A stretch of DNA of 64,000 bases from Psammoneis japonica (taxonomy: Eukaryota). The notes beneath the pieces were generated by a model. The model saw nothing but the letters and a program-made list of their open reading frames with translations, had not been told where the DNA came from and ran no database searches. The position numbers and the translations under genes are program-made. The stretch lies in assembly GCA_008632985.1 (NCBI GenBank), contig QPGO01000008.1:228979-292978 (forward strand). The letters run 5' to 3'. Positions 20,557 through 64,000 of this stretch are shown here, one piece after another (within the stretch, counting starts at the first letter, position 1; each line of letters starts with the position of its first letter).

Positions 20557-20855
20557 TGGCGACTGTGGCAACGTTGGCAACTCTGGGCAGTTTTAGCAAC
20601 TTTGATGACACACTTTGGCAAGCAACTTCGGCAGTTCTGGCAGCTTGGGCAGCTTGGGCAACTTTGACAACTTTTGCAGATTTGGCAAGGACTTTTTTGA
20701 AACTTTCACAGCTTTGGCGCATTTGGTGGCTTTGACAGCTGCTGCTTTCACAGCAGCTTTGGCAACTTTGAGGCAATTTTCTTGGCAACTTTGAAAGCTT
20801 TGGTGGTTTTGGCAGCTTTGGTGATTTTGGCAACTTTGGAAACTTGGGTGACTTT
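20557..20855. repeat. Degenerate 9-bp tandem array (consensus about TGGCAACTT)
   Basis: Repeated ggcaacttt/ggcagcttt units that read as PKL/QSC repeats in the ORF track. Confidence 0.85.
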
Positions 20856-21983
20856 GAAGAGAAGAAGGCTTGACAACTGCAGAGTGGCATTCTTGGCATG
20901 GTGTGCTCTGGCTGCTGGTCACTCTTTGTTTGTTGTTGCTCCTCTCGCTTTTGGAAATGGTGCGCCATGCACAGCATGACAAAAAGGATGATGTCATGAC
21001 TCAAACAGACAAGGGCCCAAAGCTCAAAGCTTCACAAGGATGATCAAGAAAAAAATGCCAAGACAGAAAAGTTGGGCATGTTGCACGTCTGCAATGTTCT
21101 TGCTCTCAACAAGAAGATGCGTGATTCACAAGAATCAAAATTTTCACAGACCTGTGACTGCACTCTAAGCAGGTGTCACATTTTTTTTTCAAAAACCAAC
21201 CTGGGTTGTCACTTCCACCATTTTGAACAATGTTCTGATGCTGGCTCATTTGCAGTCACAAATCTGGCTGCATTGCCAAGTTCTTGTGCTTGCCTCAACC
21301 TTGTCACACCACACATGACAATTTGACAATTCCAACTTCAACCTGGATCGCAGCATGGGGGTCAATTCAGCTGTGCACTTCATTCAACACCACTTTGAAG
21401 CTGTCAATTGACAATGAACATGCTGCAAACAGTTGTTGGGGTGCCAAGTCTCATCTGGGCTGAGGTCAACATGGTGGCAGTTTGATTTTCTGTTTTTGTT
21501 TTGGTCCACGATGCTTGTGCACTGCACTCTGTTTTGGCTGTGGAAGTGGATTTCTGCCAGTGAGCACCAAATCTTGTCTGCTGTCTGTTGCAGAAGATTG
21601 CAGAGAGTTGCTTTTGGATGCCATGCTTGTCCAAGTGCTGGTGCCAATGTGCTTGCTGAACAGAAGGATGAGAAGTGTTCTCCATGCACCCAACTCCAGG
21701 ACCCAGACTGTGTGGGCGGCAGTTGCAACCAAGAGAAAACATTTTTGCCACAAAGGATCACTCTCAGTGCACAACTCATGCAGCAGCAGGACAGCTTGAC
21801 AAGGCTGCAAGCCTTCAAAAATTGTGTGGCATGCAATTGAAGAAGCTCAAACTTGATTTCTGAATCACATCCCAGCCAGCTCTTCCATGAGATCCATTCT
21901 TGCTTGCTGAACTTTAGTTCAGAATGAAATGGAGGGTGGCTTGAACATTCATTGCTCAGCAACCAAACCTTTGAATGAGCAAC

Positions 21984-24390
21984 TCTGGAGTTTGGAAATT
22001 GAAATCTGCTGCTGTTGGGAATGGGCCACAATGCCACAAGACCAACCTTGCAATGCTCAGCCATGGCTCTCAATGCATCATCTGGGGTCCACCAGATGCT
22101 CTGCCAATGTCCTCAGCTTGCTTTTGTCTGATTCAGTTGGCTGGTGCTGTTGTGGGGTCACTTCATTCTGGAATTTGGAAGTTCAAGTCTGTTGCTGTTG
22201 GAAACAATGTGACATGGGGACACAGCACTTCAACATCCTCAACCTTGCAATGCTCAACAACAGCTCACAAAGTCTTGCCTGAAAGATGCCAAAGACCGCC
22301 AATGCCCTCTGCCAGCAGTCATCTGGTTGGTTGGTCCATCATGGGATCTCTGGAGTCAGGAAAGTCAAGGCTGCTGCTGTGGGGGACAAGGTGACATCAT
22401 GGGGCCACAACATCACAAGATCAACCATGCAATGCTCAGCCTCAGCAGCTCTTAAAGTGTCGCCAGGGGACCACTGGAGACCAGCAGTGTGCTCTGCTGG
22501 CAGCAGTTGGGTTGGTTGGCACTGTCGTGGGAATCTTGCACTCTGGAGTTGGGAAGTCACGTCTCTGCTGCTGTTGGGGACAAGGTGACAGGTGCCCACA
22601 ATGCCACAAGATGCCCCTTGCAGTGCCCCGACACAGTTCTTTGAGTGTCCCCTGTGGGGTCCACCCAAGATCAGCAGTGAGCTCTGCTGGCAGCCCAGTT
22701 CTTGGGTTGGTTGGCACTGTCATGGGATCCTCTTTGTTGCACTCTGGAGCTGGAAAAGTCAAGTCTGCTGCTGCTGTTGGGGACAAGGTGACATGAAGAA
22801 ACAGTGCCACAAGATCAACCTTTTGGTGCTCAACCACAGTTCTTAAAGTCACACATGGGGCCTGCCAGACACCGCCAGTGCCCTCAACCTGCAGCAGTTG
22901 TCAGGTCAGTTGGCATCATCATGACAGAATCCTTTCACTCTGGGGTTTGGAAATTCAAGTGTGCTGACCACAAGATTGGCTTGCAATGCTCAACCCCAGC
23001 TCTCCAAGTGTCCTCTGAGGTCCACCACACACAGCCAGTGTCCTTTGCTTGCTGTTGTCTGGTTGGTTGGCACTGTCATGGGGTTCTTTCAATCTAGAGT
23101 TTTGAAGCTCATGTCTGTTGCTGTTGGGGACAAGGTGACATGGGGGCACAACACCACAGGATCAACCCTTTTTTGCCTGGCCACAACAGCTCTTGTTGGA
23201 GAGTCCCCTGAAGTCAACCAGAGACCACCAATGTGCTCTGTTGGCAGTTGTCAGGTTGGCTGGGGCACTGTCATGGGATCCTTTCAATTTTCTGGAGTTT
23301 GGAAGCTCATGTCTGCTGCTGCTGCTGGGGACAAGGTGACATGGGGGGCCAACACCACAAGATCAACAACTTTGCAATGCCCAGAGCCACAGCTCTTGTG
23401 GCATCCCTTGGAGTCAACCAAAGACCACCAGTGTGCTCTGTTGGCAGCTGTTGGGTTGGCTGGTGCTCTCATGGGATCCTTTCAATCTGGAGTTTGGAAG
23501 TTCATGTGTCTGCTGCTGATGGAGACAAGGTGACATGGGGCCACAACACCACAAGATCAACCTTGCAATGCCCAGCTGCAGTTCTTGGAGTGTCCCCAGC
23601 AGCCCACCAGAGATCACCAGTGTGCTCTGCAGACAGTTGTTGGGGGGTGTTTGGTGCTGTCATGGGGTCCTTTCCATCTGGAGATTGGAAGTTCATGTCT
23701 GCTGCCATTGGGGATGAGGTGACATGGGGGCACAACACCACAAGATCAACTTTTTCCAAAGACCACTGGTGGGCTCTGTTGGCAGTTGTTGGGGGGTGTT
23801 TGGTGCTGTCATGGGATCCTGCACTTTGAAGTTGGGAAAGTCAAGTCTGCTGCTGTTGGGGACAAGGTGACATGGGGCCACAATGTTGCAAGATCAACCT
23901 TGCAATGCCCAACGCTCAACCACACTTCTCAAAGTGTTGCCTGGGGTCTGCCAGACACCGCCAGTGCCCTCAGCTTGCTGTTGTCTGGTGGGTTGGCGCA
24001 CTGTCATGGGGTCCCCATTCAATCTGGAGTTTGGAAGCTCATGTCTGCTGCTGTTGGGGACAATGTGACATGGGGCCACAACACCACAAGATCAACCTTG
24101 CAATGCCCAGCTGCACTTTTTGGAGTGTCCCCAGCAGTCTGCCAGAGATCACCAGTGTGCTCTGTTGGCATTTGTTGGGTTGGCTGGCACTGTCATGGGT
24201 TCCTTTCAACATGGAATTTGGAAGTTCATGTTTGCTGCTGTTGGGAACAAGGTGACATGGGGGCACAACACCACAGTGTCCTGTCACTCTGGAGTTTTTT
24301 GGAGAAGCTCATGACATTTGCTGCTGCTGAGGACAAGATGACATGGGGCCACAACATCAACCCAAGATCAATCTTGCAACTCCCAACAAA
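21984..24390. repeat. Diverged tandem repeat, ~190-200 bp unit, ~13 copies
   Basis: The core ctggagtttggaag-tcatgtctgctgctgttggggacaaggtgacatggggccacaacaccacaagatcaaccttgcaatgc recurs. Anchors lie near 22381, 22577, 22780, 23126, 23327, 23521, 23711, 23858, 24056 and 24244. Confidence 0.9.
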
Positions 24391-26909
24391 ACAGCTCTGA
24401 AATTTTTGCCTGCATGGCCTGCCAGGCACTGCCAGTCATGTTCTCAGCTTGTGCAACTGTTGGGTTGTTTGGCACCACTGTGCTTGTGTGGGTTGGCTGC
24501 AAAGATCAGCTGCAAAAGCAGAAGCTGCACCTGATGCAACAAACAAACAAACTTTGTGGACCAGCACAAACATGAAAGTTTCATTCTTGGCATGAGCCAA
24601 AAAAGATCATGAAAACTGAGACACAAATGTTGTTCAAAAACAGATGCGCTGCATCTGACTGGAGCAATGTTCAACATCCAGCTGCTGAACAAACAAGAGC
24701 TCACAACTGAAATGCATCAGGAATGAACAAATGCCAACAAAAGGATGCATCTTCAAGCCAATTCAAACAACCTGAAAATCACATGCAAATGAGTGCAACA
24801 AAATGTTTTTCAAATGATGGCATCTCTTCCAGAATGACACACAGGCAATGATCACCTGGCCAGCTGACTCAGCTCCATGGCAAAAGGCACATGAGCCATT
24901 GCCACCATGCAAACAATGCAAAAATGCAGGATTGATCCAAGCAGCATGCAAACAATGACAACATTGCAGGAAGGCACCCACAACGCCAAGGAATCTGCAC
25001 ACACCAACAAAGAAACACTTCAGGACATGGGAGCAGGCAGCTTGCCACAAACAACAACAAAGTGTCACTTTTCTTTTGAATTTTTTTGTTTTTTGAAACT
25101 CAGACACAAGTTGGCAAAAATGGCCAAAGATGAGAAAGAAAGTGCTGCTGCATTGAACACAGCAGGTGAGCAAAAACAGCAGCATTGTGCCACACTTGCC
25201 AAAAAACATGCCAAAATGACAATTTCTCTGCTGTCTTCCACCAGGGATTTTGCTTTCACATCTTGCAATGAAAAGCTGTCACAAAAGTCAACTCTCTTTG
25301 AAACATGAAAGACTGGAGCATGGTGCCATGCCAGCACAGCCAAGAACACCACCAAGGTGCAAGACAGACTGCAAGAGACAATGGGGCAGACATTGCAATG
25401 GAGTGACAGCACCAAAGAACAAGAGCAACAGAGGAGCATGCACCAAACATCGGACATTGCCAGGGCAGAAAGCAACATTGTCAGAAACCAAGAGTTGCAA
25501 AATGCAAGCCAGCTGACAAATGAACAACTCAAATTGTTGGAATGCTCCAGCCAAGGAATGACAACAACAACAACAAATTGGATTGACTTGGGCATGTGCG
25601 CACAGAAATGAACCATGTTTCATTTGTTGCAGTCTCTTGCTTTGCTGTCTTGTTGGTTGAGACAGCTGATGCTCTGACATTTGCAGCTGTTTTGTGCTGC
25701 AAACAAGTTCAAAACAAATCTTGTCAAAAGCCCACACACTTGCTGTGAGACCAAATTTCCTTGAGTCTGGTGGTTTCCTGTTTTGCCAACTCAGTTGATT
25801 GTTCAAATTGATTTGTTCACTCTGAACAAGCATTTGACAAAAACACAGGCTTCTCATTGAGCAAACTTCAACTCTGAGCAAGAGCAGCAGCTGCACTTTC
25901 CAGATGCAGAGGAGTCACATGTTGTTTTCCACTGACCAGGTGCACACAAGTGTCTCAACAACTCTGGCTTTGCAGTGAGCCTGGGCCACCCAAATCTGCC
26001 CAAGCTGCTGTGCCATGTCTGTTGTCAATGACATCAGAGCACTTGCAAGTTGAGTGTCAGAAAACCAAAGAGAAAGAAGAAACTCTTGAAATGACCTGAT
26101 GGATGGCTGCACCAAGCAATTTTAATTGTTGTGCCCAGATTCATTGGAAGGGCTTTGGTGCCAATTGGTTGTTGTCAGCCCTCAGGGGTGCAATGTGAAG
26201 TTGAGCACTGTGTCTGTTTGTTTTGTTGCATCAAAGGGCTCTTGTTGTTGCCCTGTCAAATCACATTTGGACATGTTGGGAGTGTCTCCCACAGCCACTG
26301 GTGTCCAAATCAAACAAGCTTGCTGGAACTTTGTGCACATGTGATTTGGAATGCAACAGCTCTGCACAAGGCAATCTAGTCATCCTTTGTGTTGATTTCA
26401 TCCTTGTGGCAAACCTGCTTCCTCTGCTTTCATGGATCTGCATTCCATGTTTGTTGATGGATTTTTCTGACCTTGCAATGTCATGATTGGCATGGTCATG
26501 CCAGCATGCTGCAATTTTTTGGTGCCACAAGAAACCCTTTTGTAGATGACTCCAAAAGACAAGCACTTGGTGGAAGCATGGAAAAATCCAGAAACTGGTT
26601 CATGGGAACAGCCGGCTCATTGGGATGTCACTTGCCAAACAACAAAGACAAAGCTTTTCATGACACCCAGAGAGCAAGTTTGACCGTGTAATTACAACTT
26701 GCACGTCATTCGCACTGTTACGCAACAAAGTTAGTGAAGCTTATTGAGGGTGCCAGTTCCAGTGCGCGTTGTAGTTGGAGTGTGAAAGTGCTGCGTCCGT
26801 AGGAGAGAGCCATCCGGATTTCAACTCCGGCAGCAATGGTAAAGAACATGGACACTAGTCTAATGGTGAAACATTCTATAAAAAGGATTGCTACGCAAGA
26901 TTTCCACAA

Positions 26910-34505: not shown

Positions 34506-35512
34506 TGCTATTTTCGAAAGTCCTTTTCTGGAGAGCGACCGTAGCGTACTGTATGCCGTATGGTACTTCTATGACAGCAATTGCGTCATGGTCGGACGAT
34601 ATAGCGACTGCCGCCGCGTCGTGATGCGGATGATGATGGGCTGATGGTGAGGTGAGAGCGAGAGGCAAGAAATCGTGGAGCTTGGAGCTCGTAATGACGT
34701 CACAGGTTCGCAGATAGCACACAAAATGTGACAGTGGAAATGCCGTTGGTTTTCCCGCCACATTTTCAAAAAAATTTGAAACGGCGAACCCGGGAAAAGT
34801 GAATTCAGAATCACTTTGCTAATTGTTGCACGAAGCACACAAAAATCGTCATTTGACTTTTTGAAACACGTCGTCGTCGCGATTGCCATGGTTGCTTCAA
34901 TTCTGTGCTCAAGGTGAGTCGATCGTCTCGTTTTCGTTGCGCATTGGATCTGCTGGAGTTGAGTCATTGAATGTCATCCGCACACGACTGCCATGCAGAC
35001 CTGAAGGCTTGGGTCCTTGATGGTTTTCCTCTGTGCTGTGTTTGATTGCGCACATCTTTGGAAGTCGGTTCGAGGTGAAATGACGATTGCCTGTCAAAGC
35101 AGTCCGTGGTGTTCCGACGGAGATGCACCACGATTGCCAGCAAACTCGCTTCTTGCGTGTGCGCTGAATGCTTGTAAACATCCAATGTGGCAGTGACCTG
35201 GTGCCAACCAATGCACTTTTTAGTGCAACAGTTGTTCAAGCAGGAGCCATGTGAGGGCCAGCCTCTGCTTTCTTTCTTTTGAATGCACGCTGAACGCCTG
35301 CAGACGTCGTGGACTGGGACGGTGTGTTTGACAACCCCGAAGGGCAGCCTTTTTCGTGAAGGTTGTAAGGTGGTTCAGACCGCTTGAGTTGCTTGTTGAG
35401 CATCTCACATCTGATCCTCCGCAGGTTTGACACTCCTGTGGGTCGCCGGGCCGTTGTGTCAGCCATGTTCTCCATGTCCCACAGCGTTTGAAGATCTGCT
35501 TTGTTGCGTTTG

Positions 35513-35559
35513 TCTCAGTGGATCGTGTCATTCCCACTTAGATGCAGGGATCTCTGTCA
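35513..35559 (+). repeat. 5' LTR (47 bp)
   Basis: 45/47 identical to 41353-41399 and followed directly by the PBS. Confidence 0.85.
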
Positions 35560-35880
35560 GGTTGTGAGCAACGCTTGCACAGACGTGCAAGCAAGGCTCC
35601 TCCACCACTGCCGACAACACATTTTCCTCTCGTTTCGTTGTCGACGACACCGGCAGAGAGCGCTCACATCGTAAACTTTGCCACTCCATCGATGACAATG
35701 ACGTCTGCGTCTCTGATGCTGATTCACGCCATTGCTGTTTGTTTTTGCAGCTGCTTGCATGGGCATCAGTGCACCTTCTACGTGCACTGCGATCTCCTTG
35801 GGTGCACGCCACAGAGATCCGACACATGCTGCCGCTGCGTGGTGGAACGACATTGATTTTTATTTTCATTGTCGCTCACC

Positions 35881-38800
35881 ATGGCCCCTGCTAACAGCAC
35901 CCGTTCGAAAACGGCATCCTCTTGGCGGGACACTCTGTCGTCACTCCAGGCCGCTGTGTCACCCATGTCGGCTGACGACTCCCCTGTCTCTCCTCCTCCG
36001 GCTGAGACTGACCCTGCTTCTGCTGGTGATGCAACGGCAGAGGATGCTTCGGTGCCTCACGATGCGCCCACGGCAGAGGACGCAATCGAGGCGGAAGCCA
36101 CCATTGCGGTGAATGTCACTGCTCCGGAAGCTGATGCGAGCCCTGAACAGACGGAAACCCCTGCCTCTCTCTCAGAACAGCCGCCGCTGCCAGTGCTCCC
36201 AACCCTGCCTCCACGCTTGCCGCCTGCCCCACCTCCTGAATGGCCTCACACGCCTCCTGGCAATCCCCTGCAGCCTGAGGAACCTCCCAACCCTCCACAC
36301 TCTCCTCCGACATCGCCTCAGGCTCTTCTCAAAATGCACGAGAGTCATCTTAACTTGGCTGTTGCCCGCATCCACGAATGTAAACGGGCACTGGATGTCT
36401 CTGCGGAAGAAGTTTCCAGGCTCAAGCGGGAGCTGCACGAAATCCGTTTGGTCACGAACAATCACGCCTCGGCCATCACGGACCTCAAACATGCTCGTGA
36501 TTTCAACCTCCTCCGCACCAAGGTTCAGACCCAAATGAAAGCAACTGCAGATGAAGCCATCGCTTTGGCTGGCAACGCGGCCAACGAAGCTTTGGCAACA
36601 CGTGACACCCAATTCCTGGAAGCTCTCGACAAGATGATTGTTCCGGTTTACGAAGCTGCGGAAGCAACGACACTTGAACGCATCCGCACCACATCGACGA
36701 ATGCACAAAACAACATGGCGTCTTTTGTGGCGGACCAAACCAGCCGGCTGGAATCGGCTGCCTCGGAAGCTGTCCATGCTGTGGGTGACCACGTCGGTGC
36801 CACCCGTAAAAAGTTCCAGGCTCGGCTTAAGCACAATGTTAAACTGCAAACGGATGACCTGGATGTCACCCTTGCCAGATTGGACTCCACCAAGAACGCC
36901 ACACAGCAGATTGTTCAGAATGGCTTTGCTGTGGCCAACACAATGGCGGCCCTCTTGGAAGACTGTGAAAACGCTGCTGCACCCTCTTCTCCGGACACCT
37001 CGTCTTCTCCGGCTGCAGGCCTCCAACATGTCACGAAGGACCACCTGGAGGACATGCTGAGAGATGACTTGGACGGCCTCCAGGCTCAACTGACCCTCCA
37101 ACAGGACACCGCTCAAGTGCACGCCGGTGAGATCAAACACGCCAATGATGCATCTGAAGCTGCTCGGCGTGCGGCAGCTGGGGTTCAGAAGGAACTGGGC
37201 AAATGTCGATCGGAGTTGTCGAATCTGACAGCGAACTTATCACCCGCCACCCCAGATCCTGGCCCAATGGTCACGGAACGCATTGCTTCGTCATTGGACA
37301 ACATCGCTGATCATCTCGTGACTTCGCCTGATCCCATGATCTCTCTGGCACCCCCGGTCGTTGGCACCAATCATGCTGCTACGAGCAAACCGGCCTCCTC
37401 TTCGGAACAATGCTGCAACTCCAAAACCTTCCGTGAGACCCCCGGCCCCTTTCTCCATTCCATGGAACCAAACGACATCGCTCTGTTTCTCAAAGGTGTG
37501 TGTGCACGGTGCACCCTGGCCCATGTTCCCATCCGGGATCCGGACACTCTCACTCGCGCACAGTCCGACTTCTGTAACCCGATGTTAGTGAGTGCGTCCC
37601 ATCGTCAATGGCATGCGATTGAGATGTGTTCCAAATTGGTGCAGGATGATGCACTTCCGGATCACCAACTGTGTGACGGTTGGAAAAAGACATGCGCCGC
37701 ATCGATGGACAGTTTTGCGATCCTCAATCACCTCGCGGCTCTTGGACTTCCACCCCTGACGGGCAAAATGGTTGATGCCCCATCCTGGAAAGGTGACCTT
37801 TGTGAGCTTGTGGTGGAATTCACCATTTGCTTCACTGCCGTGGAAGCCTCACACGCCAAGACGGATCCCACTGCACCCCCGGCATGCTCGGAATGCCAGA
37901 AGTCTCTCAAATTGCTGGAGGCAACACCGGCTGGCACGCATGAACCGGTGCTCCTTCTCAAACACCGTCTGAATGAGATTGGGGACCCCGCTCCCCTGCC
38001 CCATGATCTCCACCTGGTCTCTCTCATCACACAGATTGACCCCAGGCTTGCTGCGAATGCCGACCCGACGGGATCTTTGAGTGCATTCTGCAGCCGACCG
38101 TCTCGCGGCCGCCAGCCCATTTCGCTGGATCGACAGCACACCCCATTCCAGCCCCGGAAGGGTCTCATTTGTGATGCATGCGGAGCGCACGGCCACAGTC
38201 ACACAACTGCACCAACCTGGCCCGCACTGCTTTGCTGTTGGATTTCATCAAGGCAAACACGGAGAAAGTTAAGTCCATTGTTTCTAAATGGCATTCTCAC
38301 AACCAACGCCGCAAGGACTCACCACGCCCGACTGCCCATCCATTTGTGGCGGATGTCTCTCATGACATTGCCAACCATGTGATGGATGAAACGGCCTCGG
38401 ACCTCCCATTTGCATCGGATGCACCTCCGGATTTTCTGCAAGCCGGCCGCATGCTCCATCATTGTGCGGTGAACGGCTTGCCAATGGCTGCGGGGCAGAT
38501 GATCGGGACGATTTGTCGTCTCTGCCTTCCGCTGACTCTCCGATCCCTCCTTCAATCTGTCGCTCATTCGCCTCCAGCATCCCCTGCTTTGACCAGCTAC
38601 CGGACTGGAGCCATTCAGGCCGCCCTCCCGATCTCGCCAGCACAGATTCGGATTCTACGATGTCGCGCTCGATGCCGGACGATGACTCGCTCTCCCTGTT
38701 GGACGAGTCATGGGCTGCGGCGGTCGAGGATTTTGCCGAAGATCCTCAGGCTGCTCTGCACTGCTTTGCCACAAAATTTGAGTCAATGGAGTCCGTCACT

Positions 38801-39595
38801 CCTCCCACCATTGCGCTTTCCACAGCTCTGGCACTGGAACATGAAACCGCGTTGCTGCCCACCTTTCACTGTGCCAGTGTTGGGAACCTTGCTCCGGACT
38901 CTCCAGTGGAAGCATCAGGGCAGACGGACACTGGTGCCAATTGCAGTGCCACATCTCAACGACACCTGCTTGCCAACTGCCGCCGCTTTGCGAATCCCAA
39001 ACCTGTGAGCACAGCTTCTGCACCCGACACCACCCTCATGGCACTGGGAGCAGGCATGTGCACCATCCGTGACATGGACAATCGCGAGCATGACATTCCG
39101 ATGTTCTGCTGCCCTGGGCTGGGTGAAACCCTGATTTCGCCTGATCATCTGTGCAGAGCATCCAAAGAACAACACAGCCAATGCCGTGCTTTGCACTTTC
39201 AGGATTCTGGTCACGGCACACTCACGGTGACTGATCGGGGCCGTTCCATCATCCGGTCTTTTCCGATGGTGCACACTGACGGCTTGTGGTTCATGCCACG
39301 GCTCTGCCCCGATGCACCACTGGCTGACGGACACACAGAACTGGAGGGTGCAATGCGCACGTTGCGGATGCATTCACCGACTTTGAGAGACCTCGGATGT
39401 GAGTTCGATGTGCCCGATCCTCCTGGCAAATACGAACAGCTTGATTTGGATGCCCCATCATCCCCTGTGCCCATGGACCCTGTCCCTGAGCATCCCAGCA
39501 TCAGCGAGGACCCATCCGATGTTCCCACACCCCACTTGTCCTCCCTTCAACGCACTCTCCAGGGTCACCCTGAATCTCCCCATTTGTGGAGCATG
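35881..39595 (+). pseudogene. Copia gag (zinc knuckle), aspartic protease and start of the RT remnant
   Basis: CDACGAHGH..C near 38170, DTGAN near 38930 and LQGHPESPHLW near 39560. Frameshifted, with one Tyr in the 837-aa ORF. Confidence 0.8.
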
Positions 39596-40042
39596 TGCAG
39601 CATGCATGCAGACAAAAGGTTGTTTTTGTCACGCCCTTTGTGACATTTAAAGGCTGTGACACGTCGCCGTGATGCATTGGCTCTTGTCAGCAGCTGTGTG
39701 TTGCACTCCTCCCCATGCATCACGCGTCCGTGCGGCTCTTTACTAACGTGCACTGACACTGCACGGTTTTGGCGGAACAGTGTGGGTGCGTGCGAAGGAA
39801 CACACAGAACTGCACAGAGTTTTGCGCGTTCGACAGTGATCAACATTGCTGCAGACAACTCCCACTCAGGGTTTCGAACCCCTGGCCTCCTGCCCAATGG
39901 TTGCGATGAACCACTCCGCTAAGAATTCATAATGCAGCATGCATGCAGACAAAAGGTTGTTTTTGTCACGCCCTTTGTGACATTTAAAGGCTGCAACACG
40001 TCGCCGTGATGCACCAACTCTTGTTGGCAGCTGTGTGTTGCA
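39596..40042 (-). mobile_element. TRIM-like miniature LTR element nested in the Copia RT
   Basis: 110-bp TG...CA direct repeats at 39596-39705 and 39933-40042, TSD CATG and a minus-strand PPT ggggaggag at 39706-39714. Removing it restores the RT frame LWSMHVDKII. Confidence 0.85.
39858..39925 (-). ncRNA. tRNA-derived module (Pol III A box and B box) inside the TRIM; not an intact tRNA
   Basis: The minus strand reads TAGCGGAGTGGTTCATCGC (D-arm/A box) and CAGGGGTTCGAAACCCTG (T-arm/B box). The anticodon arm is short and the acceptor stem does not pair. Confidence 0.65.
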
Positions 40043-40046
40043 CATG

Positions 40047-41340
40047 CATGTGGACAAGATCATCCATGAACACCTCCATCTTGCCCCGACCACCCACGAA
40101 CCATGCATCTGCAGCGGTGCAGTGAACGGTGAAGAGGTGCCATTTCTGCGTCAAGTCGATGATTTCGCCATCCATTGCAATGGACTCGGACGCCACATGT
40201 CAACACATGTGCGACATTGTGGATGACCATGTCACCGGTGGCAAGATCAAACGTCAGGGCTTGCTCACCCTGTTTCTTGGTCATGATGTGGAACAGACAA
40301 AAGACTGCATCCGCTGCACAGCACCTCCTGCGTGAAGCGGATCTTGGCCAACCATGCTTTCCTGACTGACGACAACCTCGGCCCGCCTCCCGCCATCCCA
40401 ATGCCCGGCGATGCCTCCTGCTCCAAATCCCTCGATGAGGCTCCCACTCCGACTGACTCCAAGGCACCCAAGACCCTTCAACAACAACAGGGTTTCTCTT
40501 GCCGGAAGGCAGTCGGTGAATTGATGTGGGCCATGGTCACCACCCTCGTGGATCTCAGCTGCTCGATCACCAAGCTGAGTCAGCTCAGCTCTAATCCTGG
40601 ACAACTGCACTGTGAAGGCGTGGAGCATTCTCTCCGGCACCTCAAGCATCACCCCGATTTCGGACTTACATGCTGGCATCAACAACCTGACACGACACTC
40701 CCCCATGCTCCTCCTCCACCTCCGATGACTGCACCCCACGACCGAGTGCTGCTGCCCCCTCAGGCTTCATCTCCTGCCAAGCTCACAGGCTACAAGGACT
40801 CTGATTGGGCTGCCGACATCCGACACCGCCACTCGATTGCCGGCATTGCATTTCTCCTCGCGGGAGCTGCAACTGCATGGAAGACCAGAGTGCAACCGAC
40901 TGTGTCAACCTCTTCATTGGAAGCAGAGTTTGTTGCTGCATCAGACGCCGGCAAAATGGCACTTTGTCTCCGGTCTGTCATGGATGAACTGTCGGTCCCC
41001 CAGATGCAAGCCATGTCAGCATGCGAAGACAATGATGCATCCCGCAAGATGGCCACCGCAAGCCAACCCACACGCCGCACCCACCACATTGACATCCACC
41101 ATTTTGCTCTTCAAGACTGGGTCAAATGCGACTTAGTTCGACTGGATCGCATTGACACATCAGCCAATTGCAGCGACATGCTCACCAAGAATGTGGCGTG
41201 CATCTTGTTTTTCCACCATTTGGATGCATTGAGTGGACGTCACCATCCCCTCCATGTGCTGGATGGCAGTGACAACACACCACTGCACTGTTCACCAGAA
41301 GAACAGTGCACCCAGACTCACAGGGGTCATGATTCTCCCA
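40047..41340 (+). pseudogene. Copia reverse transcriptase C-terminal half plus RNase H
   Basis: PTTHEPC, FLRQVDDFAI, GELMWAMVT, DSDWA, SSLEAEFVA, EDN, HIDI and SDMLTK motifs. Confidence 0.9.
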
Positions 41341-41352
41341 GTGTGGGGGGGG

Positions 41353-41399
41353 TCTCAGTGGATCGTGTCATTCCTGCTTAGATGCAGGGATCTCTGTCA
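41353..41399 (+). repeat. 3' LTR (47 bp)
   Basis: Follows the PPT and is followed by the TSD GTTTG. Confidence 0.85.
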
Positions 41400-42541
41400 G
41401 TTTGTGATTGTGACCGTCTTGCTGAGCCACACTTCACAACTCACACTTTTTTTCAGATTTTGATTTCTGTTTTGACAGATGATTGTGCATTGCAAGCTGT
41501 GAGAAAGAAGAGCTGCATGTTTGCAAGGGCATTCCACTGATGGTTCGGTTGCAACTTTGGCAGGATGCCTGGTGTGATGCTCTCGTCCCTTTTCGAACAC
41601 ATCACATCTGCATGCAGTCTCAACATTGTCATTCATCCAAGCCATCTGAATCTCCAAATGACATTCATCCTCCCTGTCAAAATCTTGTTTGCCCACAAGC
41701 ACAAGAATCAGGACACAAGGTTTTGTTGTGCATCGAGTTTCCGTGCATTGTTGTCCTGGCAGTGACAACCAAGACACAAGTCAGTCTGCCGGAACTCTCG
41801 TTGTGGCACTCAAGCTGTTTTGAGCAGAAAGAGTTGAAGAATGATGCAATGCTTTGACATTTCAACAGTCTTTGTTGTTGCGGTGGAATGGCACCTGTGG
41901 CCTCCAACATGCCGGGTGCGGGTCTGCATTGCCAGTCATTCTGGTCATGGCTTGTGTCATGCAACCGCAGCGCTTTGTCAATTTCACCAAGGCACAGCTG
42001 AACAAGCACTCTGAGATTCCGTCATCCATGTTGTTGAAAGATTGTTTGTTGAGACAAAGAGACTCATCTGCATGCAAGTCCAGCAAGTGCAAACATCTTC
42101 AGAACAAGAAAGCTGTCACGGCTTTGATTCTCTGTTGCGATGACAATCAAGACATGGCGGGGCTACGTCTCTATCTTCAGGCCATCGAATGGGTGGGACT
42201 CAAGTGGATGGTTGGTCGAACCAATGGCAAGATGTGCCAAGGTCCGAGCACATCATTGAGTGTTGTTTGGAAAGCGTTGCTGGGGAAAGAACCCACCATC
42301 TGAAAAGCATCCAATGCTCCAATGTCAGATGCTCTTAAATGGCACCGCTGCTCTGGTTTCTCACACTCTGGGATCTTGAGTTGAGCAAAACTTCCTCCAA
42401 GCTTGAAGTCGACGATGGCAAGAGAAGGAATCTTTGACCTCTGCGCACCAGCCAACAGAAAGGTCTGCCAAGCATCATTCACTCAAGTCATTTGGGTTTC
42501 TCGAGAGCATGAATTGCGTCAACATGAATCTCCCACAAGTT

Positions 42542-42825
42542 CATGATGCCGAAAGCACGTCTGCTTTCAATCTTCTTTTGATGCAGGCATCTCTGACCCT
42601 TGGCGGTTGTTGCGCTTGATGTGTTCCCCGAGAAACGTCTCTCTCACAACACTCCAACAAACGAGGCAATGGAACATGATGCTGAAAGCACGTCTAACTT
42701 CAATCTTCATCAAATCCAAGAAGGAGACAACCTTCTTATGATGCAGGTGTCTCTGATGCTTGGCGGTTGTTGTGCTTGACATTTTCCCGAGAAACATGTC
42801 TCTCACGACACACCTGCAAACGAGA
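42542..42825. repeat. Two-copy tandem duplication (~125-150 bp)
   Basis: catgatgc.gaaagcacgtct...atgcagg..tctctga..cttggcggttgttg.gcttga...gagaaac occurs twice. Confidence 0.75.
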
Positions 42826-44227
42826 GCCTTGGCAGCTGTTCCAGTTGAAACAGCCCCTCGAGCGTCACATGTGAACGCCACCCATTCGCTCAATCACGAT
42901 TCATGTGCAGTGGTTCTGCAGTGCACACAGTTGAACCGAGTGCACTCTCCAAGACACAGCATTTGCTTCAATCAGTTTTCAGCACTCGCATTCTGACCTT
43001 GTGTGCCCTTCAAGTGATGGAGCAACAAGATTGCTTTCCTTGTCCGCAGCGGGATCGGTTTGCGTTCACATCAATCCTCAAGTTTGCCATGAGAACCTGC
43101 ATCAGTCCTGGTCTGCCAGAGTCTGTCTGATGCTCCAGGTTCCAAGACACTGTGAAGGCGTGACTGTCATTGCCTCTCCACGTGCAATGCCTGCCCAAGA
43201 TCATGTGTTTTTCTTTGGCCGTCAATCTTTGACCTTCAATCATGCACTCCAAGCAAGTGCATCAGCGATGACATCAGCTTGCAAGCCTGTCAGAAACCAG
43301 GCACTGACAACCGCAGATGTGATGCTGCAGTCTTGTCCCGCCCTCAAGCATGCGAGCAAAGCCGCACTCTTGCAGCAACAGCAATGACAATGCGAGCCAT
43401 TCAGAAACTCGAAGACTGGGCCACAGTTGAAGCTCGCCCATCCTTGCAATGGCATTGCTCAAAATTCAGAGACAATCATTTCAAGCCAAGCACAACAGCT
43501 GTGTGTCATTTCAAGCCAGTGCACAAGTCACGTTGGCCGCGCTTCACAGGAAGTTTCCTGAATGGGACGCGCCAAGCTTCCGCCAGCAGCGTGCCAAGTT
43601 GAGTTGGACTGGGAAAAGCATCCTGTCTTGCGACCAATTGTGTTGCCATGAATCTTGCATCGACCTTGCTCCCATGTGATTGACAGATTCTAAAATGGCC
43701 AAGCTCTGTCGTCAGCAACGCATCGTTGGCAACAGACTGAGTCGCTGCGCAGGTGTCAATGACAACTCTTTTTCAAGCGCTTCTTTGCAGTCACTTCTCA
43801 AGGGTTGAATGGCACCAACCGAATGTTCTTTTAGAGGATTGCCGAGTGACTGCTCAGCCCAAACCACAGCACAGATTTGCGCTCCTCGCTCCGTCTCGGC
43901 TTCCGGTGCACAGCCCTACACGCTTACTTACCGGCACCGGTTTAAGGATGGAAGACTTTATTCCCGCCCACTTTTTCAAAATTTGATTTCTCTTCATTCT
44001 CCTTGCACTTGTATACAAAAATAAGTAATGAACATTGTTCGGATTTGTATGTTTCCTTTCGATCTCAACGGATCCGTTGCGCAATTATCGTCCTTCGTAA
44101 ATGCAAGAGAAATATACAGGAAATGGCGATGATGTTTTCACACACTTTTTGTTCACAATTCATTCTCATTCTCATCTATTGAAGAAGGAGCTAGGCCACT
44201 GAAGATGCCATCAGCATTTACAGCAAC

Positions 44228-61209: not shown

Positions 61210-64000
61210 TGCCGGTGCGCAACAATGCAACAATGGTGCGGCAATGATGATGTGGTAGACCAGAAGGTCGTCGTGAAAAGGAACCATGCAATGTTGAGCT
61301 CAGTTCTGACAAAGAAGCACTGGCGGCAGTGGATCTGTTTGTACCCCGAACAACTGCAGTTGGAACTGGGGTCGACACTTCTGTCGGACTTGAAACTGGT
61401 TTTTTTTTTTTGCTGTCCACCTCCTCTGATCTGTGCTCCAGCACTTCTTCAAAATGGCATGCTGGGTGCCACACTGCTGGTGAGGAACATGGCAGAAAGC
61501 TGCATTGCCAAGCAGCACTGCAGCCACAATGTCATTGAAATTCCAACAGCTTCAACTGCACAGTGTGATCTCTGCCAAGTGGCTGAGAGTTCATTTCAGC
61601 AAAAGCCATTGCTTGCTTCGGCTTGCATGATGTGTGTTGCTGCTTGTGTTTGATTTTTGCAGCCAGCTGTTTTTCACAATGTGCTGCACAGAAGCATTGT
61701 CATCTCCTCTGCTTCTTTGTCAAGAGCATCTTGGGGGGCTGAGGTGAGCCTCTTGTGCATTGCAAGCAATGGTTTGAGTTCAGACATCATGCACACAAAA
61801 GAGCAGAGAAAAGGAGGTTTTTAGCTGAAAAAATTCAGAGTTGCAGGAGGAGGCACAAAGAAGCCAGCTGCGTCATCCAAATTGGGGCAACACACTGAGT
61901 TGAGTGTTGCACGTTGTGGCAGGGCACTGATGACAAATGCAGGCCAGCTTCAGAGTGTGCAATGATCATTGTGGTGGTTTCAGCACCAGCGCGAGTGTGC
62001 CAGCAGGAGGAAGCAGGCAGTGAGAGACTTGGCCAGCCTCTGTGCTTCTCAGAGAGGACCTTGCTCATCTCAGAATCACACCACAGTGCTGTCTTCCAAC
62101 CTTGGGTGTTGGCGCTTTTTGCACCCAAGCCTCTCCACAATTTTGGCATTTGCTGACATTTCACAGCCAACACATCATCCTTTGCTGTTCTTGCCTCAAA
62201 CCTGGAGCCTGAAGAAGCAGTGAGAGGCGCAAGCCAGCCCAAAACAAAGAGATCCAGTGCTGAGGATCTGCACAATCTTGTCATTGGCCCGCACTTGTTC
62301 TTTGATGAGCAAGAGCTGCCCTCTTTATGACTCAAATGATCAAGCCAACTTGAAAAGATTGTTGCGAATTTCAGCCCTGAGCCCATTTTTTGAGACCTCA
62401 GCACTGACCAGTTCAGGACATCTTGCAAAGTTGCCCTTGCCAAGCAAAGTGTCAATGTCACAAGTGTGCTGATGTTGTGTGCAAGACCATGTGATGACAC
62501 CTTGCAGGCCCATGGCAGTTGGCCTGAGCACCTTTTCTGCCATTGTGTGGTCTTGAAACAACAAAAGAAGAAGATTTTGCCCTGGCAAACTCAGCTCACT
62601 TTCCATGTGTGTCAGTGCCATGCTGCTCATGTGGAAATGTGTGTGGAAGCATCTCTCCAAAAATGTTGTCATGCAGGTGTCCAAGAATGGTGCACAGAAA
62701 GAATGCAGAGAGGAAATGAGCACATTTGGGGGCCCTGCTCCTCTTCCAGCACAAAACTCACATTTTGTGTGCAGAAATGCTGGCCTCTTGTGTGGTGCTG
62801 CAATGACTTGATGTGACAACACACAAAGCAGCTTGCCTTTTGAGTGATGGCAAGGCAGGATGACAATGCAGCAATGACACAAGAAACAGAGCAGCAGCAG
62901 TGGCAACTGGGTGAGTTGTGGCACTCAAAAGTAACCTCATGTTTGGGACAAATTTGTCCTCAAGAGCTATCTTCTTGTGTGCAAAGGCAGGTGCTGCAAC
63001 AGATTTGTGAACTCAAGAGAATTTGTTCACGCAAACCCAAATGCATTGTTTGAGCAACAGTTGTCAACTGTGGTCTCATCCAGATTTGTGCACATGCTCA
63101 TTGTTTTAACAAAACACTCTGTGGCTCTCTCGCACAAATGGTTTGGTGTGGCAGGAACAACATCTGCAGTTTTTTGACAAAAAGTGCTGGTGGCAACAGC
63201 TCCAACATCTGTTTGTGCTCCAAGCATCAGCTTTGGAGCTGGGGTTGGCACTTCTGTGGAACTGGGGTTGGCGCTTTTTTGTCTGACATGAAATGGTTTT
63301 TTTGCTGTCCATCTCTGCTCTCTGCTCCCCACTTTTTCAAAGAGGCGCCACCCATGGGTGAGCAGGAACAAAGCAGAAAGCTGCACTTTCTAAGCAGCAT
63401 TGGAGCCATGTTGCCAAAGAAGTGTCCAAGCCAACAGTTTCAACTGCACTGTCATCTCTGCCAAGCAAGCTCATTTGCTTGAGCAAAAGCCAATGTTTTG
63501 AGTTTGCATGAGTGCTGCTTTTCACAACATGAGCTCTGTGCACTGCATGCCAGCATCATCTCCTCTGCTTCTTTGTCAAGAGCATGTTGGAAATGGAGAT
63601 CAGTCTTGTGCATTGTGGATGTGATGGCTCAAGTGCAGACATTGTGCACTTAAGAGCAGAAAAAAGTTTTGAAGTTCAACAGATTCAGGGTTGCAAATGG
63701 CAACAACAAAGATGAAGAAACAGCTCACTGAAACACAAAGAAGTCAACCACACCAGAGTTGGAACAACACCCAGAATTGAGTGCTGCACACTCTGACAGC
63801 GCACTGATGACAAATGCAAACCAACTTCAGAGTGTGCAATGATTGTCATGGCTTCAGTGAATGCCAGCAGTGAGAGACTTTGCCAGTCTCTGGAATGTGC
63901 TCCAAGGGAACAACTCGCAGTGGTGGCTGCAGACACGGCAAGAGAAAAATGCCACACCTGGCTCACTGCTGAGCCTTGGTGACCTTTTTCCCGCAGCTTT
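61210..64000. repeat. TpA/CpG-depleted repeat block 3 with a diverged ~1.9-kb direct duplication; continues beyond the window
   Basis: About 61380-62050 is similar to about 63280-63890, for example catctcctctgcttctttgtcaagagcat in both. Only about 7 TA after 61350. Confidence 0.75.

Follow-up and report, generated by a model that had tools for sequence, protein, structure and literature searches.

In a 64,000-nt stretch of the genome of the diatom Psammoneis japonica (contig QPGO01000008.1, positions 228,979 to 292,978; hereafter the window, with positions counted from its first letter), some nine in ten TA dinucleotides (TpA) of a Ty1/Copia-type retrotransposon with long terminal repeats (LTRs) at 35513–41399 have been rewritten to TG or CA. 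We consider it likely, with a probability of roughly 85%, that this element was hit by TpA-directed transition hypermutation after it had inserted into a repeat island between genes. In the course of events that we propose, a Copia element of a short-LTR clade would have inserted into a repeat island that separates two genes, producing a 5-bp target duplication, and the whole island would then have been hit in place and equally on both strands, TpA becoming TpG or CpA (A:T to G:C), with the contexts TTAA, CTAA/TTAG and GTAA/TTAC relatively spared. Tyrosine codons (TAY) would have become TGY (Cys) or CAY (His), the primer binding site (PBS) would have lost its TpA and the G+C content would have risen to 56%. 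A second conversion, of CpG to TpG or CpA, would have been mild in the element and complete in two neighbouring islands, blocks A and C.

TpA is nearly absent from three intergenic blocks

Dinucleotide counts in 500-nt bins along the window revealed three sharply delimited blocks nearly devoid of TpA, each occupying the space between flanking gene open reading frames (ORFs), with edges within ∼100–300 nt of the ORFs. Block B (34610–43910), a repeat island filling the space between two diatom genes, houses the Copia element. Its TpA density is 4.7/kb, as against 38–45/kb in the background, and CpG is retained at 50/kb. The TpA-poor tract passes the target-site duplications of the element by 0.9 kb to the left and 2.5 kb to the right. 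The sequence-only reading that preceded this analysis had placed the deficit at 35560–41340; inside that interval it was correct, but the affected tract is wider (∼34610–43910). Blocks A (20600–26680) and C (61350–64000, continuing past the window end) are repeat islands without recognisable domains, and both have lost CpG as well as TpA. Block A, built of diverged tandem units of ∼189 nt, is left with 8 TpA (1.3/kb) and 23 CpG (3.8/kb), and block C with 7 TpA (2.6/kb) and 19 CpG (7.2/kb).

The element itself contains 31 TpA where 284 are expected from base composition (odds 0.10), compared with odds of 0.49–0.52 in the flanks. Its closest proteins are 22 metagenome polyproteins of 650–1660 aa (38–48% identity, E-values of 5e-84 to 1e-44), which carry RVT_2 and a pre-integrase zinc domain (PF07727, PF13976). 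A search of a representative library with the element's pol gave 27165 matches, and 79 related loci were fetched by means of conserved peptides. The pol DNA at 22 loci has TpA odds of 0.58–0.92; over all 79 the lowest value was 0.47, and none had a 1-kb window below 0.25. The proposal of the earlier reading that the TA deficit is mutational and not native thus agrees with the composition of the relatives.

Tyrosine positions reveal the direction of change

The three large ORFs of the element hold 3 Tyr in 1622 aa, compared with 2.8–4.4% Tyr in the relatives. Tyr is the residue of no fewer than half of the 22 relatives in 12 columns of the alignment of reverse transcriptase (RT) and RNase H, and the element retains only one of them; the other 11 read Cys (6), His (2), Trp, Leu and Val (1 each). 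By comparison, 159 of 236 columns with another majority residue are retained (Fisher p = 6e-5), so Tyr codons were indeed mutated more than others. None of four Tyr columns in the protease piece is retained. The RT/RNase H frame contains 19 Cys, of which 6 occupy columns where Tyr is the majority residue and 1 a column where Cys is, and of its 37 His, 6 fall on Arg-majority and 2 on Tyr-majority columns.

Eight peptide motifs had been singled out from the sequence as places where Copia proteins normally have Tyr. All eight lie in the +3 frame of 40041–41378, including the TGC codons at 40500 and 41022. Tyr is the prevailing residue at six of them, being present in 17–22 of the 22 relatives (EPCIC 22, GFSCR 20, LHCE 20, LRHL 17, GLTCW 20, ALCLR 18). 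The other two sites are ambiguous because Phe is commoner than Tyr in the relatives (DLSCS: F 15, Y 4; ACEDN: F 10, Y 9). Cys at one or other of the eight sites was seen in a single relative out of the 22, in agreement with the claim that the TAY to TGY or CAY changes are derived.

For the gag-like ORF, the loss of Tyr is read from amino-acid composition. The earlier description of a single Tyr and a C-terminal half rich in Cys and His fits the sequence, with 20 Cys (18 in that half) and 36 His (21 in that half), but the length of 837 aa given for it does not; the frame spans 841 aa from stop to stop (35857–38382) and 833 aa from the first ATG.

The PBS bears the same mark outside the coding sequence. 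It reads GGTTGTGAGC at 35560–35569 and, over its full extent (35560–35573), GGTTGTGAGCAACG, with G as the fifth base where the relatives have A. The PBS of the related locus L015, GGTTATGAGCAACG, differs from that of the window by a single A to G change at TpA, and L030 (GGTTATGAGCAAT) likewise has A where the window has G; those of L033 (GGTTATAGAGCC) and L003 (GGTTTTGAGCGC) are more divergent. That the PBS was mutated at a TpA, as the sequence-only reading held, is thus borne out. The same reading took the changes to be both derived and inactivating, and for the PBS the second part does not follow, as a G–U wobble with the primer would remain. The element was already crippled by deletion of the integrase and most of the RT.

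We also counted changes by codon-level parsimony over 313 majority columns, a crude measure given how distant the relatives are (52 further columns need more than one step). TA changed to TG at 10.5 of 65 opportunities and to CA at 4 of 61 (14.5/126 for both), and CG changed to CA at 8 of 82 and to TG at 2 of 56 (10/138 for both). Other transitions numbered 10.5 in 366 opportunities, transversions 39 in 1547, and A to G or T to C changes elsewhere than at TpA 8 in 214. The CpG-type contribution within the element includes Arg to His at 7 sites.

The changes occurred in place, in DNA and on both strands

The two LTRs of a retrotransposon are identical at insertion. Those of the element now differ at one dinucleotide only, which is CA in the 5′ LTR (35535–35536) and TG in the 3′ LTR (41375–41376). 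The copies of a 111-nt direct duplication within the element have diverged in the same way, their 8 mismatches being transitions without exception (8/8), all paired as TG versus CA. Among the tandem units of block A, the commonest adjacent double transition in pairwise comparison is CA–TG (101 of 174), followed by AA–GG with 31, although these pairwise counts are not mutually independent. TG and CA occur in similar numbers throughout (541 versus 582 in the element, 716 versus 714 in block A, 893 versus 921 in block B and 313 versus 301 in block C), and the sum of the four pyrimidine–purine (YpR) dinucleotides is 240–252/kb in the blocks and 238–244/kb in the background. What TA has lost, TG and CA have thus gained in equal measure, which indicates that both strands were hit, in DNA and in place. 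The involvement of both strands had also been predicted from the sequence.

Public sequencing data allowed other copies to be compared. Run X1 contains 0.71 of the sampled words of the window, and runs X2 and X3 next to none. In contigs from run X1, word depth is ∼57 over the flanking genes, whereas the summed depth reaches 300–2000 over the left flank of the element and most of the element itself, from which we conclude that look-alike copies of the element exist. Contigs with a 31-mer depth of 57–81 reproduced the TA-free stretches with 0–3 differing letters over 0.8–1.7 kb. Between the window and the contigs there are 1201 transition places and 454 transversion places. Among the 40 of 1678 variant places that were listed individually, 23 lie inside the TA-poor blocks; where the window has TG or CA, other copies have TA at 7 of these and CG at 11, with 1 reverse case and 4 of other kinds making up the rest. 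These differences among copies argue against an assembly or base-calling artefact and for divergence by TA- and CG-type changes after the copies had multiplied.

Flanking bases influence which TpA survive

The 53 TpA that survive in the three blocks are not a random sample of contexts: 29 are YTAR, 23 mixed and 1 RTAY (Y, pyrimidine; R, purine), compared with 325, 987 and 570 in the background (chi-square p = 1.5e-12). Relative to background density, survival is 0.23 for YTAR, 0.06 for mixed contexts and 0.005 for RTAY. TTAA is spared most (0.48), followed by CTAA/TTAG (∼0.26), GTAA (0.17) and TTAC (0.08), and no ATAT, GTAC, GTAT, GTAG or ATAG is left. The preference holds with the DNA of the relatives as the baseline (p = 4e-7 for the element). 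Given the strand symmetry, it means that a target A is protected either by a T two bases to its 5′ side or by an A directly 3′ of it. At the 21 sites where TpA is taken as the ancestral state, the base after the A on the mutated strand was C at 11 and T at 5. In a test of strand orientation the informative sites divided 10 to 4, and 8 Tyr codons became Cys codons while 2 became His codons. Small as these numbers are, they lean towards T-A-Y as the preferred target, which we regard as suggestive. A product-side analysis of context, comparing gains of TGN and NTG with background, was set aside as confounded by ancestral composition.

Loss of TpA has side effects on coding potential. The combined density of TAA and TAG on both strands falls from 36–40/kb in the background to 2.4–7.7/kb in the blocks, whereas TGA stays at 39–50/kb. 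Changes of A to G and T to C destroy TAA and TAG and create no stops, so that long ORFs stay open. Such ORFs are found in several frames of 35000–43500, for example one of 354 aa antisense to gag (36172–37236, minus strand). Erasure of TAA and TAG explains the openness of both the 841-aa gag frame and this antisense ORF. The G+C content is 0.55–0.57 in the element and 0.47 in the flanks, and TpA conversion accounts for part of the rise.

Possible mechanisms and competing explanations

The comparisons above establish the direction, the context, the strand symmetry and the post-insertion timing of the changes. How they were made is a separate matter. We favour a host process directed at TpA in silenced or repeated DNA. 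In it, a host enzyme might deaminate the adenine, yielding inosine, which is read as G, and would in this way serve as a defence against mobile DNA. Adenine deamination is the likeliest chemistry in our judgement, at about even odds, and it is favoured because A turns into G after a 5′ T whichever strand is hit, and because the target of tRNA adenosine deaminases, A34, stands directly after the invariant U33. No deaminase gene is encoded within the 64-kb window.

Several points weigh against hypermutation after insertion as set out here. The evidence is a footprint in sequence, which would not by itself reveal an enzyme, inosine or another modified base, or ongoing activity. Polarity was drawn from proteins that are 38–48% identical, from the PBSs of four relatives and from 40 of 1678 variant places. 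Fetching relatives by conserved peptides would under-sample any that are hypermutated themselves. Run X1 may be the source sample of the window, and hence not an independent individual, and summed contig depth does not equal copy number. Part of the TpA loss may also predate the insertion of this copy, and for the LTR site as well as for blocks A and C the ancestral dinucleotide could have been CG instead of TA.

In a broader proposal, a single YpR-directed system would lie behind the loss of both TpA and CpG, either a DNA deaminase acting on A and C or the oxidation of thymine and 5-methylcytosine. It would account well for blocks A and C, where both dinucleotides were lost (TpA at 1.3–2.6/kb, CpG at 3.8–7.2/kb) at a constant YpR total and with TG and CA gained equally, and for the observation that other copies differ from the window at CG (11) about as often as at TA (7) around the element; moreover, ADAT2 enzymes editing A and C in DNA are mentioned in the available sections of a preprint on Bigelowiella natans (bioRxiv 10.64898/2026.01.13.699255). 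However, the Copia element has lost ∼90% of its TpA and has CpG at background density (55.7 versus 51/kb), and CpG decay is to be expected in methylated diatom repeats regardless, as far as the available parts of a diatom methyltransferase paper go (PMC9998398). We therefore hold a single system to be rather doubtful. The same applies to its oxidation variant, in which both 5-methylpyrimidines, each 5′ in TpA or CpG, would be the targets, a mispairing T being read as C and 5-methylcytosine as T.

The remaining explanations fare worse. ADAR-like A-to-I hyperediting of double-stranded RNA from the element, fixed by reverse transcription before insertion, would suit a retroelement target and the eight changes of Tyr to Cys (sense-strand A to G) as opposed to two to His, and ADAR prefers to edit an A that has a U on its 5′ side, as the B. 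natans preprint (bioRxiv 10.64898/2026.01.13.699255) also states. Yet TG and CA are about equally frequent on the sense strand of the element, and also in the non-retroelement repeats of block A, the TA-poor tract extends beyond the target duplications, and the LTRs and the internal duplication copies diverged as TG versus CA after they had formed. Furthermore, TAG, the triplet preferred by ADAR, is not the most depleted context. RNA editing is thus very unlikely to be the cause. Barely conceivable to us is a family that natively avoids TpA, through escape from a host nuclease or through codon choice, and in which Cys and His are functional. The host background is indeed moderately TpA-poor (odds 0.5–0.7), but we exclude native composition because of the TpA odds of the relatives' pol DNA; the 22 close relatives also have ordinary amounts of Tyr, invariant Tyr positions have been lost from an element that lacks an integrase and has in-frame stops, the non-coding LTR, PBS and flanks are equally affected, and TA persists in other copies at the same places. 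Equally little credence is due to a sequencing or assembly artefact, by which modified bases of heterochromatin would have been miscalled and TA and CG read as TG and CA. A conversion this complete and this sharply bounded does resemble a modification domain, but the independently built contigs from run X1, with a 31-mer depth of 57–81, reproduce the TA-free sequence at a depth and accuracy that fit accurate reads, in which modified bases are not miscalled; miscalls affecting both strands would not yield clean TG or CA, and copies differ from one another at the affected sites. TpA-directed hypermutation of DNA after insertion remains the reading that we prefer.

Comparison with known systems

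The closest parallel is found in B. natans, a chlorarachniophyte and thus a rhizarian. According to the sections of the preprint available (bioRxiv 10.64898/2026.01.13.699255), two integrated viral regions received 231 of the 302 new substitutions in mutation-accumulation lines; nearly all of these were A to G or T to C changes, and every such change lay at TpA. The same sections put this hypermutation of virus and virophage DNA at a rate about 1000-fold above background, report an enrichment of reverse transcriptase and DDE domains among TpA-poor coding sequences, and have the authors (Mettrop et al.) proposing an ADAT2-like deamination of DNA adenine. The window resembles that description in having A to G and T to C changes at TpA with other A:T pairs spared, in products of both kinds (TpG and CpA), so that both strands are involved, in a TpA loss matched by CpA and TpG gain and in the confinement of the changes to delimited regions, here three blocks. 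It differs in host, a diatom and hence a stramenopile, and in target, where intergenic islands with an LTR retrotransposon and tandem repeats take the place of giant viruses and virophages. Conversion is near saturation here, with odds of 0.03–0.10 compared with 0.45 in the B. natans virus region as given in the same sections. We see a flanking-base preference, whereas the main text of the preprint gives only the TpA context, and the neighbouring islands have also lost CpG, whereas CpG, LTRs, Copia and diatoms find no mention in the available sections. Finally, the B. natans changes were caught as new mutations, whereas here there is a footprint with post-insertion divergence.

In the full-text literature, with subscription journals outside the search, TpA to TpG/CpA hypermutation was found in the B. 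natans preprint only, and none in diatoms. Term look-ups in the accessible text of the diatom methyltransferase paper (PMC9998398) and of a 2025 diatom transposon preprint did not find 'TpA', nor did that of the latter contain 'hypermutat', 'dinucleotide' or 'RIP'. Near-saturation, retrotransposon and tandem-repeat targets, the flanking-base preference and CpG co-loss in two neighbouring islands therefore appear to be new.

Repeat-induced point mutation (RIP) of fungi changes C to T, mostly at CpA, and so creates TpA and stop codons and lowers G+C. The window shares with RIP in Neurospora and other fungi an in-place transition hypermutation of repeats on both strands, a dinucleotide context, bounded blocks and dead transposons. 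Its polarity is the opposite: TpA is destroyed (0.03–0.14 of expectation), G+C is raised to 0.55–0.57 and TAA and TAG are erased. ADAR is an animal family, and its hyperediting of double-stranded RNA from repeats likewise has A read as G with a preference for a 5′ U or T, but it would leave A to G changes of one strand, inherited via RNA. The changes in the window are strand-symmetric and at the level of DNA, they continued after insertion, and they affect flanks that do not look transcribed.

Decay of methylated CpG may have contributed as well, diatoms having DNMT5-dependent CpG methylation and CpG decay of methylated transposons, according to the available parts of the methyltransferase paper (PMC9998398). 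Its footprint, as read from the bases themselves, is seen in blocks A and C, mildly in the element, and in the 11 CG versus TG/CA differences to other copies. It is unable to remove TpA, and the Copia element lost TpA and kept CpG. With diatom Ty1/Copia elements of the CoDi type the element has in common a Copia pol (E-values down to 5e-84), a 5-bp duplication, a PBS of the half-tRNA-Met kind and a diatom host; unlike them, this copy is without integrase and N-terminal RT, has 47-nt LTRs and is hypermutated.

A footprint of this kind in a diatom suggests that TpA hypermutation is widespread in the SAR (stramenopiles, alveolates and Rhizaria) supergroup and may be ancient, and that it acts on ordinary mobile DNA besides integrated viruses. 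Diatoms would then possess a defence resembling RIP, but one by which G+C increases and stop codons are eliminated instead of being added. More speculatively, and with little confidence, one could imagine a RIP-like defence of opposite polarity in which silenced or repeated DNA is recognised and both of its self-complementary YpR steps, TpA and CpG, are rewritten to TpG/CpA by a dual adenine/cytosine DNA deaminase or a 5-methylpyrimidine oxidase, TpA-only and TpA+CpG islands being stages or modes of one SAR programme. For annotation, hypermutated elements evade domain searches, the dating of insertions by LTR divergence is distorted, and erasure of TAA and TAG leaves long false ORFs in all six frames that would mislead gene callers. 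A natural enzyme that edits adenine at TpA in double-stranded genomic DNA, if there is one, would also be of interest for base editing. Diatoms are genetically tractable, which makes the mechanism testable.

Anatomy of the Copia element

The element at 35513–41399 is the dead remnant of a Ty1/Copia-type LTR retrotransposon that has suffered an internal deletion; all its parts lie on the plus strand. Target-site duplications with the sequence GTTTG, identical by direct reading, lie at 35508–35512 and 41400–41404 and enclose two LTRs of 47 nt in direct orientation (35513–35559 and 41353–41399; 45 of 47 positions identical). The PBS adjoins the 5′ LTR, and a polypurine tract of 8 G (41345–41352) directly precedes the 3′ LTR. 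A candidate second PBS after the 3′ LTR (GTTTGTGA), which would have indicated a tandem element, was rejected as the target duplication plus chance.

Between these ends, the gag-like ORF (35881–38382 from its first ATG) ends at a TGA stop and has a Cys/His knuckle-like motif close to its C-terminus; it matched no Pfam family and, by tblastn, nothing in the 79 related loci. An aspartic protease region with the motif DTGA follows in frame 2 (38852–39310), aligned by tblastn with residues ∼10–263 of the relatives and with a weak Pfam match to Pol_BBD. The C-terminal RT and RNase H occupy frame 3 at 40041–41270, match residues ∼866–1390 of the relatives and contain in-frame TGA codons at 40224 and 40284 along with the Tyr to Cys/His sites. 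At the deletion junction in between (39311–39520), residues ∼145–866 of the relatives (∼700 residues of integrase and N-terminal RT) have no counterpart. We conclude that the integrase and N-terminal RT are deleted because only one 34-residue piece of the relatives matches between protease and RT. The pol is homologous to Copia-type RT/RNase H of the Pfam RVT_2 lineage, and the order protease–integrase–RT–RNase H is broken by the missing parts, which we read as probably the mark of a deleted derivative and not of a different superfamily. Pfam found no family in the element's own 364-aa ORF, most of which falls outside the RVT_2 model.

The two copies of the 111-nt direct duplication lie at 39596–39706 and 39933–40043, the second running on into the RT frame. 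Over 39341–40007, summed contig depth in run X1 is 63357, whereas single-copy genes are at ∼57. Something extremely abundant in that run thus resembles part of the sequence at the deletion junction, either of the 226-nt insert or of the 111-nt duplication.

Four of the related loci have both LTRs present (L003, L015, L030 and L033) and share the architecture of the element, including a polypurine tract directly before the 3′ LTR (7–9 G in the five elements). In L033, the only relative with both flanks readable, there is also a 5-bp duplication. LTRs are unusually short in this Copia clade, 47 nt here and 85–86 nt in the four metagenome relatives. Copia elements are primed by a half of tRNA-Met. 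The reverse complement of the relatives' GGTTATGAG includes CTCATAA, which we take, by textbook tRNA numbering, to be the shape of the Met anticodon loop, and the PBS sequence would fit pairing with the anticodon-loop half of tRNA-Met.

Two further observations concern the related polyproteins. A subgroup of them (P0010, P0011, P0013–P0015, P0017 and P0018) carries a dUTPase domain (PF00692) before the integrase zinc domain. In P0053 (2851 aa), 15 separate stretches match the RNase H part of the query, and this protein is probably a read-through gene call over a tandem array of element fragments.

Other features of the window

Genes are dense in the window, a eukaryotic sequence with a G+C content of 47% and long ORFs free of interruptions. 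Among its host genes we recognised those for DGAT2, an EEP nuclease, dihydroxy-acid dehydratase, Sas10, a WLM protease, condensin Cnd3 and prolidase. Among the 120 matches listed for the prolidase ORF, all those with a named source come from diatoms (Seminavis, Fragilaria, Odontella, Mayamaea, Fistulifera, Epithemia, Nitzschia and others) at 55–63% identity, and none with a name exceeds this, which marks the host as a diatom and not Bigelowiella. Rfam gave 0 matches and a tRNA scan 0 genes over the whole window, and a Pfam search of 36 ORFs from the TA-poor tracts other than the element gave no family above the cut-off. The CpG that survive in the doubly depleted islands (20600–26400 and 61500–63990) are skewed to the context GCGC, which holds 11 of the 38.

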